Source: a virus. Taken from it: a DNA stretch of 56,702 nt. The position numbers were made by a program, and so were the translations under genes. Below the pieces are notes generated by a model. It made no database searches. It had not been told where the DNA came from and saw only the letters and a list, made by a program, of their open reading frames with translations. The stretch is from UHGV virus genome UHGV-0213557; one strand, written 5' to 3'. This document shows, in pieces, positions 41,966 through 42,838 of this stretch (position 1 is the first letter of the stretch; every line of letters starts with the position of its first letter).

Positions 41966-42838
41966 TTATTTAGCCAATATCTCTATCCAATTATTAGGAA
42001 AACCAATAAGCTTTAAGTCTATAGAATTATTATAATCATTAATTAACTTTTGAAGTTTTATAAAAAAACTATTCCAAATTAATTTATCCATAGTCAAATG
42101 CTTCATAGCAAGTATATAAGAAAATATCTTTTTATTATCCAAGTTATACTTTTTATATTCGTTTTTTATTGTTATAATACGGAAATTATTATTATATATT
42201 CTACCATAATGAGCGCATTGATTTCTGACCTGTGTTAATGATTGTAACCAAGATTTAACTAATAAAGTATTCACTCTACACAAATTATTTTTTATGTATC
42301 TAGTATCTTCTGGCAACATGTTTGAATATAATTTTTACAACATACCAAAAGTCATTATTTCCGTTGCAACCCAAATGGGAAGTTTTCCTTTATATTTTTC
42401 TTTATGGTGTATAATAAAAAGCTTATCTGAATTATTATTTTTTTCTCTCTCTAATGCTGTCAAAAAATTAATATAGAATTTTTCATCTTTGAAACTCTCC
42501 CTTTATAGATATCCACAAGCACCATGTTTAATTGCTAATGTATATGCAATGTATGTCCTAAATGCTATTTCTATGCTCCCTAACAAATCTGTTAATAATA
42601 TCCTAAATTCCTTATTAAACCTATATATATCATAAACTTCTTCAAACGTAGTTCCTTCTTTATATGAGCCATCATCATTCTTAAAACTTAGAAGATATGC
42701 TGTAAACCTATAATAATTGACATTACTTAATACAAATTTAGCATCTTCTTTATCATTTATTATTAATCCTCTACTTTTTAAAATATCTATTTGTTCATCA
42801 AATGTTTTTTCTTCTTTTACTTCAACCATTGTTTTCAC
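41966..42838 (-). pseudogene. Abi_2 (AbiD/AbiF-like) gene: a single continuous reading frame interrupted by two in-frame TAA codons (~42503-42505 and ~42335-42337)
   Basis: Hand translation across both stops: ..AIKHGACGYL*RESFKDEKFYINFLTALEREKNNNSDKLFIIHHKEKYKGKLPIWVATEIMTFGML*KLYSNMLPEDTRY..NQCAHYGRIYN.. No frameshift needed. Confidence 0.6.

Follow-up and report, generated by a model that had tools for sequence, protein, structure and literature searches.

In the UHGV virus genome UHGV-0213557 (56,702 nucleotides (nt), here called the window, in whose coordinates all positions are given), a gene of the Abi_2 family lies between the holin and endolysin genes, and its frame is interrupted by two TAA codons. 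This locus is very probably a decayed copy of AbiFCd/RCd22, a module found between the holin and endolysin of phiC2-like and phi027-like Clostridioides difficile prophages. AbiFCd/RCd22 was described from the phi027 prophage of strain R20291 as a phage-borne, type III-like toxin/RNA-antitoxin module (Saunier et al., PLoS Genet 2025, PMC12373285). The window allele is real, it is a common null and it is essentially ordinary.

The abiF reading frame and its relatives

Translation of positions 42838-41966 (minus strand) gives one 291-codon frame with no frameshifts and with internal stops only at the two TAA codons, exactly as a first-pass annotation of this DNA had described it. The abiFCd pseudogene proper runs over 41966..42829 (minus strand; 287 codons plus stop) and was delimited by translation, Pfam, PADLOC, alignment to phiC2 and phiCDKH02, and a homologue in the PDB. 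Its ATG at 42829 is preceded by the ribosome-binding site AGGTGA (42835..42840, minus strand), which is visible in the sequence and named likewise in PMC12373285. At the first in-frame TAA (42505-42503, minus strand), intact alleles have GAA (E109*), and at the second (42337-42335, minus strand) they have TCA (S165*); between the two, AAA stands in place of GAA (E147K; 42389..42391, minus strand). The N-terminal open reading frame (ORF) fragment measures 108 amino acids (aa) from the real ATG, or 111 aa when counted from a GTG, 55 codons separate the two stops (42 aa of these appear as a listed ORF) and the C-terminal fragment of 117 aa begins at M171. Shine-Dalgarno sequences were looked for ahead of M171 and ahead of TTG codon 123, and none was found at either.

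When the two stops are masked, the product aligns with Pfam Abi_2 (PF07751) over the full profile (positions 2-184 of 184, E = 9e-48, 163 bits) and contains both LPIWVATEIMTFG and the HEPN motif RNQCAH, in agreement with the earlier description of a full-length Abi_2 protein with conserved motifs once the stops are read through. The intact orthologue matches AbiD in PADLOC (7e-95), as do both fragments from the window, and PDB entry 8vz6 ('Abi family protein') aligns to the intact protein across residues 12-281 (8e-30) with the HEPN motif aligned. This RNase motif, R202-N-Q-C-A-H207 (R-phi-xxx-H), is encoded at 42226-42209 (minus strand), within the presumably untranslated C-terminal fragment. 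Given the in-frame TAA at codons 109 and 165, which leave no uninterrupted ORF for the whole Abi_2 domain, the locus is, on its sequence, a pseudogene of an Abi_2 family member and not a functional member.

Megablast against phage genomes returned four records that span the whole 1.3-kb region, including CD2301, phiC2 and phiCDKH02. CD2301 (MW512571) is 100% identical, and there the gene is annotated as two separate 'AbiF-like protein' coding sequences (CDSs). One intact 287-aa gene is annotated in each of phiC2 (99.7% DNA identity) and phiCDKH02 (99.6%), which answers the comparison with phiC2-like phages that had been proposed for this gene. Aligned over 1101 bases, the window and phiC2 disagree at four positions, three coding and one in the upstream leader: on the coding strand, GAA to TAA at 42505 (E109*), GAA to AAA at 42391 (E147K), TCA to TAA at 42336 (S165*) and G to U at 42909. 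All four are GC-to-AT changes, in a gene of 25% G+C. We considered and rejected an enrichment of single-nucleotide polymorphisms in the cassette as a signal of selection: divergence from phiCDKH02 is ~0.45% in the cassette versus ~0.56% in the flanks, and in the comparison with phiC2 conservation is far higher in the cassette than in the flanks.

In a further 25 C. difficile phage records the match is confined to 41800-41905, at the beginning of the endolysin gene, and the cassette is missing; by this comparison the abiF cassette is an accessory insert, lacking in most related phages. Similarity to the cassette-free phages resumes at 41905. The cassette sits within the holin-endolysin lysis module, the position that membership in AbiFCd/RCd22 entails, and the previously noted placement is borne out by profile matches on either side, to a Phage_holin_5_2 holin (43347-43090, minus strand) and an Amidase_3 endolysin (41887-41075, minus strand). 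A scan of the 2.7-kb region found three hairpin-plus-T-run sites versus 0.3 expected from shuffles; these include a terminator that closes the cassette (41942-41918, minus strand) and one upstream of abiF (42892-42869), so that the hairpins reported on both sides are present. Their reading as the insulation of a moron stands only in part: the cassette is an accessory insert with an end terminator, but the upstream hairpin is the attenuator of RCd22, through which abiF would be co-transcribed. Separately, the holin coding sequence contains a terminator-like hairpin of 13 bp (43292-43321, minus strand), and the holin positions that differ from phiC2 and phiCDKH02 cluster at 43270-43291.

The RCd22 leader and related systems

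In R20291, transcription from a SigA promoter starts 168 nt upstream of the abiFCd ATG, and most transcripts stop at a terminator, giving RCd22 forms of ~98 to 132 nt (PMC12373285). RCd22 3' ends were mapped at 88-115 nt, toxin-dependent cleavage was not reported, and transcripts that read through the terminator encode abiFCd, so that premature termination controls its expression (PMC12373285). AbiFCd is a homodimeric HEPN RNase that is toxic in C. difficile and in E. coli and needs R202 and H207 for toxicity; RCd22 binds and neutralises it, acting as antitoxin in cis and in trans, and one broken stem pair per abiF motif abolishes both neutralisation and cis repression (PMC12373285).

The corresponding elements are all found in the window, on the minus strand. 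The -10 box TATAAT of the SigA-type RCd22/abiF promoter (43009-43004) lies 7 nt upstream of the presumed transcription start, an A at 42997, which we placed 168 nt upstream of the ATG from the 5'RACE distance in R20291 (PMC12373285). Intact-toxin alleles have exactly the same promoter region, and a scan of the stretch from RCd22's terminator to the ATG found no high-scoring promoter. RCd22, delimited by RF03085 matches and the terminator, occupies 42866..42997 (132 nt) and is one base off phiC2 (the U89 variant). Scanned permissively against Rfam, the 260-bp spacer between holin and abiF yields two tandem RF03085 matches within RCd22: abiF RNA motif 1 (hairpin 42991-42958; positions 9-41 in the numbering of PMC12373285), which scores 19.5 bits with cmscan, equal to its score in phiC2, and motif 2 (hairpin 42939-42904, with G89U at 42909), which scores 26.6 bits. 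Riboswitches and other Rfam families, sought in the same permissive scan of the leader, gave noise matches only (E > 3). Since both motifs fall under the RF03085 gathering score of 37 bits, neither is listed by a gathering-threshold scan of the whole window, which reports CRISPR repeats only. The Rho-independent terminator/attenuator (42892-42869, from the terminator scan) has a 10-bp stem and a U-run to 42866. Direct repeats had been noted in the presumed promoter region; the repeat itself is confirmed, as an 18-nt unit (42902-42919 and 42956-42973, 89% identical and 54 nt apart), but it lies downstream of the transcription start at 42997 and consists of the 3' halves of the two protein-binding abiF RNA hairpins. 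Promoter, two RNA repeats, terminator and toxin ORF thus follow one another on one strand, the arrangement that type III toxin-antitoxin systems have.

The single leader change falls in the 3' arm of the motif 2 stem, where 42909 is RCd22 nucleotide 89 and the C63-G89 pair becomes a C-U mismatch. The motif 2 score of 26.6 bits compares with 37.6 bits in phiC2, and this 11-bit loss, which is due to G89U alone, explains why the gathering-threshold scan misses the motif; its homology to RF03085 is not in doubt, but by these scores the motif is damaged. In RNAfold the isolated hairpin has a folding energy of -7.3 kcal/mol with U89 versus -14.0 kcal/mol with G89, the pair probabilities of the motif 2 stem within the 132-nt RNA fall from 0.99 to 0.01 with U89, and in the U89 minimum-energy fold the motif 2 5' arm AACCCGCC pairs with the terminator 3' arm GGUGGGUU. 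G89U is thus predicted to halve the stability of the hairpin and to favour pairing of the motif 5' arm with the terminator 3' arm; stem-destabilising mutations have been suggested to disturb the terminator (PMC12373285).

As an observation in its own right, the motif 2 5' arm ACCCGCCAAG resembles the terminator 5' arm ACCCACUAAU, and each can pair with the terminator 3' arm UUGGUGGGU. A latent antiterminator fold is thus available within 42866-42940, and for the natural variants U89 and A37/U90 it is the fold of minimum energy. This fold may be part of the 'riboswitch-like' control proposed in PMC12373285.

Set beside AbiFCd/RCd22 of phi027, the window cassette shares the lysis-module site, the 168-nt leader, the AGGTGA and the 287-codon RNQCAH frame, and differs in the E109*, E147K and S165* of its toxin and the G89U of its RCd22. 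The genes phiC2 ORF37 (putative AbiF; Goh et al. 2007) and phiCDKH02_66 have the same neighbours but are intact and accompanied by RCd22 with G89. PbAbiF-ncRNA (PDB 8vz6) is a homologous HEPN protein with the catalytic R and H aligned, a homodimer bound by a conserved hairpin non-coding RNA (ncRNA); its identity is ~30%, two separate ncRNA copies bind each dimer where C. difficile has both motifs on one RNA, and, unlike it, the window copy is non-functional. The AbiF-ncRNA structure (Zilberzwige-Tal et al., cited in PMC12373285) has been discussed as that of a proposed Cas13 ancestor. AbiFCd shares its Pfam family, Abi_2, with Lactococcus lactis AbiD, AbiD1 and AbiF (pNP40 and others), and its identity to L. 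lactis AbiF is 34% (PMC12373285); the lactococcal proteins are plasmid-borne and have demonstrated anti-phage activity, whereas C. difficile AbiFCd is only presumed to be an abortive-infection cassette. The arrangement of promoter, tandem RNA repeats, Rho-independent terminator and toxin ORF is also that of ToxIN and AbiQ/antiQ. In those systems an RNA antitoxin binds a protein RNase toxin, with a link to abortive infection. The ToxIN/AbiQ toxins have a ToxN/Kid-like fold, however, unrelated to the HEPN fold of AbiFCd, and the window has only two, partly similar repeats 54 nt apart; the tandem, near-identical repeats of a ToxIN-like antitoxin are cut apart by its toxin.

Alleles of the cassette and the order of decay

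The broken allele is widespread. In the protein collection, the exact 108-aa fragment is present on 603 contigs and the 117-aa fragment on 592, up to complete 4.25-Mb chromosomes; in the protein index, the 108-aa fragment occurs in 925 blocks and two common intact proteins in 3991 and 1756. We compared 1.2-kb cassettes from 50 loci plus the window (51 in total), collected by protein look-ups and an IMG/VR pattern scan and counted descriptively. The first IMG/VR scan was anchored in RCd22 and blind to other motif 2 variants; repeating it with an anchor in the CDS gained a single locus, the null L054 with its G37A and C90U, and left the picture unchanged. The repeat covered 22 loci, 15 intact and 7 null, with the double-stop allele at five of the latter.

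E109* is common to at least five haplotypes. It occurs essentially alone on an S131 background (L022); with C105Y and M163I (L026); with A95G, a 1-nt deletion at 42810 and RCd22 U89 (L004-6 and L048); with E147K, S165* and U89 (the window, CD2301, L020, L033, L036 and L043); and with E147K, S165* and G89 (L019, L049 and L052). The double-stop combination, found in the window plus 8 other loci, is present on at least two different prophage backbones (those of L019 and L020). Neither S165* nor E147K, which is seen only alongside S165*, occurs without E109* in any of the 51 cassettes, and for this reason we take E109* to have arisen first and S165* later, in one sub-lineage of an already dead gene. 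This is the simplest history, parsimonious but not proven.

On that history the two stops accumulated sequentially, and the decay pattern, which the first-pass annotation had called odd, loses its oddity. Among the single-base changes that the intact gene can undergo, 6.4% produce a stop, and among its GC-to-AT changes 10.7% do, such that at least two nonsense changes among three substitutions have P of about 0.01-0.03 if treated as simultaneous. One nonsense change among two later substitutions in a dead gene has a probability of ~0.12-0.20, which makes the two-stop pattern unremarkable under a stepwise history. Substitutions on intact alleles number 7 synonymous to 2 nonsynonymous, versus 1 synonymous to 6 nonsynonymous among those private to the E109* clade (one-sided Fisher ~0.02). 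This shift indicates that constraint on the CDS is relaxed in the E109* clade, as in stepwise pseudogene decay and not as in read-through.

At least six further independent abiF lesions occur in the C. difficile population. The independent knock-outs include an A-insertion frameshift that leaves 179 aa, truncations to 92 aa and to 157 aa, a product of 193 aa whose end falls just ahead of W194 and a +4/-4 indel pair that leaves a 70-aa product. In this last allele (L021, L023-25 and L054), an ATAT insertion at 42631 and a deletion of 42551-42548 are separated by 80 nt, and the frame is regained after a scrambled 27-codon stretch with stops; RCd22 carries G37A and C90U alongside. Protein P0129 (C. 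difficile, 3 contigs) is a full-length AbiFCd with H207Y in the catalytic HEPN motif (RNQCAYYGR) and, by its sequence, represents an independent missense route to a putatively non-toxic allele.

Variation in RCd22 tracks the state of the toxin: it is invariant in 28/28 intact-toxin loci and changed in 16/23 null loci, an association that, given the kinship of the loci and the choice of some by allele, rests on a handful of events and not on frequency. The changes are G89U, G37A plus C90U, or C2U; the G37A plus C90U pair is that of the +4/-4 indel lineage, which is independent, and its G37A undoes the pairing of C9 with G37 in motif 1. In the spacer upstream of RCd22, on the promoter side, three substitutions (43028, 43019 and 43014) are likewise confined to null alleles, and among intact alleles only L047 has an upstream change, the loss of 1 nt at 43053. 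Toxin and antitoxin RNA thus look as though they decay together, with RCd22 constrained only while a toxin exists. The toxin probably died before RCd22 changed, because E109* is also found with G89; on the same ground G89U is disfavoured as the primary event.

Elsewhere, the window carries a phiC2-like myovirus genome apart from two CRISPR arrays near its ends (3474-3831 and 55735-56488, with 6 and 12 repeats), which match Rfam RF01327 CRISPR-DR14 with a 29-nt repeat and a period of ~66 nt. Prophage-borne CRISPR arrays are known in C. difficile; the phiCDKH02 interval at the corresponding place holds BRO-family, DUF4352 and DUF4428 genes. Terminase to tail sheath extends from 17416 to 4307 and tape measure to endolysin from 55137 to 41075, both on the minus strand, and collinearity with phiC2 is obtained only when the two ends of the window are connected; the window would seem to be an entire phage or prophage genome, circularly permuted. 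Homologues of integrase and repressor are encoded at ~32900-38600. Downstream of the endolysin, a 799-aa protein with LRR and CW_binding_2 repeats is encoded at 38582-40981 (minus strand), a slot that in relatives holds variants of 669, 763, 782 or 799 aa, or unrelated genes, and that appears to be a hypervariable cargo site next to the lysis module.

Competing explanations and significance

The explanation we favour is ordinary, stepwise decay of AbiFCd/RCd22. A GAA to TAA change at codon 109 would have been the first knock-out, either selected (the toxin being costly) or merely tolerated, and one sub-lineage would then have gained E147K and the TCA to TAA change at codon 165. Judged from the stops, the R202/H207 motif would be untranslatable and no toxin would be made; RCd22-U89 would still be transcribed, its promoter being unchanged, but in an impaired form. 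Both partners would drift once the toxin is lost, with RCd22 changing only where the toxin is already dead. The earlier suggestion of a recently silenced toxic gene fits this explanation well, as the intact orthologue is toxic (PMC12373285) and only three coding substitutions separate the window from phiC2. Several points weigh against it. The absence of toxin is read from the stop codons and not from expression, and the predicted harm of G89U to RCd22 comes from folding together with analogy to a published double-motif G-to-C mutant. The loci share ancestry and some were retrieved by allele, so the counts above are descriptive and are not frequencies. E109* stands on both N131 and S131 backgrounds, which needs recombination or recurrent mutation and keeps the order of events from being proven. 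The null allele is, moreover, old, frequent and present on several backbones, which could mean that a function is maintained.

Among the alternatives, the one with most in its favour, though we consider it unlikely, is adaptive silencing in multiple hits: loss of the toxin would have been positively selected, either through its cost or because an antitoxin weakened by G89U derepressed it, and the second stop would guard against a harmful C-terminal HEPN fragment. Derepressed AbiFCd is toxic and stem-breaking RCd22 mutations abolish neutralisation and cis repression, U89 is never found with an intact toxin, and independent loss-of-function alleles are many (roughly a fifth to a third of sampled loci). 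Relative to phiC2, the three coding changes are without exception nonsynonymous, two of them nonsense (P about 0.01-0.03 were they simultaneous), and gene callers report a 165-aa ORF with the HEPN motif, starting at TTG codon 123, in alleles with E109* only. Yet E109* accompanies wild-type G89 on three haplotypes, from which the antitoxin defect is more simply secondary; neither TTG codon 123 nor M171 has a Shine-Dalgarno; and a lone C-terminal half is unlikely to fold, the structural alignment covering residues 12-281. Alleles with E109* only persist on hundreds of contigs, and a second stop arises by chance with P of about 0.12-0.20, with no need for selection. A functional split gene was also considered and rejected: a common sister allele has a frameshift at codon 7 of the N-terminal fragment, other alleles have A95G, C105Y or T92R in it, and the C-terminal fragment has no ribosome-binding site.

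A maintained function could instead reside in the RNA, with orphan RCd22 kept as a counter-defence that neutralises the AbiFCd of resident prophages such as phi027. RCd22 works in trans, all null alleles keep the promoter, both motifs and the terminator, the allele is common and on several backbones, and the double-stop loci L019 and L049 retain wild-type RCd22. There is also an analogy in the pseudo-ToxI RNAs with which phages reportedly defeat ToxIN, an escape by RNA mimicry that Blower and colleagues are said to have described in 2012. What such a role predicts, however, is the opposite of what the alleles display: RCd22 gains stem-breaking changes (G89U and G37A) in nulls and is invariant alongside an intact toxin, and G89U is predicted to unfold motif 2, when stem integrity is required for antitoxin activity (PMC12373285). 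We therefore regard counter-defence as very improbable. Little more credit goes to the proposition that toxin-null alleles are kept because orphan RCd22 or the 108-aa N-terminal fragment serves as an anti-AbiF decoy, or to its broader form, in which the natural allelic series would reflect a Cas13-ancestor toxin lost repeatedly under selection, with its guide-like RNA decaying afterwards. Programmed read-through or suppression, which the first-pass annotation had raised and in which the TAA codons would sometimes be decoded to give a low, safe level of full-length toxin, is extremely unlikely. It has in its favour the bare pattern of two nonsense codons, no frameshift and an otherwise undamaged C-terminal half. 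ARAGORN finds no tRNA genes in the window, and hence no suppressor tRNA there. TAA is the commonest stop in the window and serves as a normal terminator (it ends 25/43 long ORFs, including those of the adjacent holin and abiF), and sister E109* alleles carry frameshifts and extra missense changes (the 1 synonymous to 6 nonsynonymous noted above), with nothing to suggest purifying selection. Both release factors recognise UAA, which leaks least among the bacterial stops, and a double read-through event multiplies two small probabilities. A sequencing or assembly error, with sense codons truly present at both sites, had been raised as well and can practically be dismissed: 3.8 kb are identical to the independently sequenced CD2301, the exact fragments recur on ~600 contigs of many assemblies, including complete chromosomes, plus five IMG/VR contigs, and both stop lesions are transversions and not homopolymer errors.

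Much of this system is already published, namely the module itself, its RNA, its position in the lysis module and the link to Cas13 ancestry, and GenBank already contains the broken gene, annotated as two CDSs. In the 2025 paper, phiC2 and phiCD2301 are listed as carriers with RCd22 upstream of abiF, and the CD2301 homologue it cites, QVW56672.1, is the 108-aa N-terminal fragment (PMC12373285). Its text has no occurrence of stop codon, nonsense, truncated, pseudogene or frameshift; the CD2301-type pseudogene, the frequent nulls of multiple origin and the tracking of toxin state by RCd22 variation are absent from it. Our analysis is thus a useful footnote to a known system, and its value is chiefly corrective. 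The two CDSs annotated as 'AbiF-like protein' make up a single pseudogene, and phiCD2301 and ~600 sequenced C. difficile prophages carry a dead abiFCd and should not be counted as AbiF-armed in defence surveys, a correction that applies equally to host-range and phage-therapy work. The natural allelic series also complements the published mutagenesis with in vivo variants. It lends support to the idea that RCd22 is selected solely for controlling AbiFCd, and it suggests that the toxin is often dispensable or costly for the prophage.

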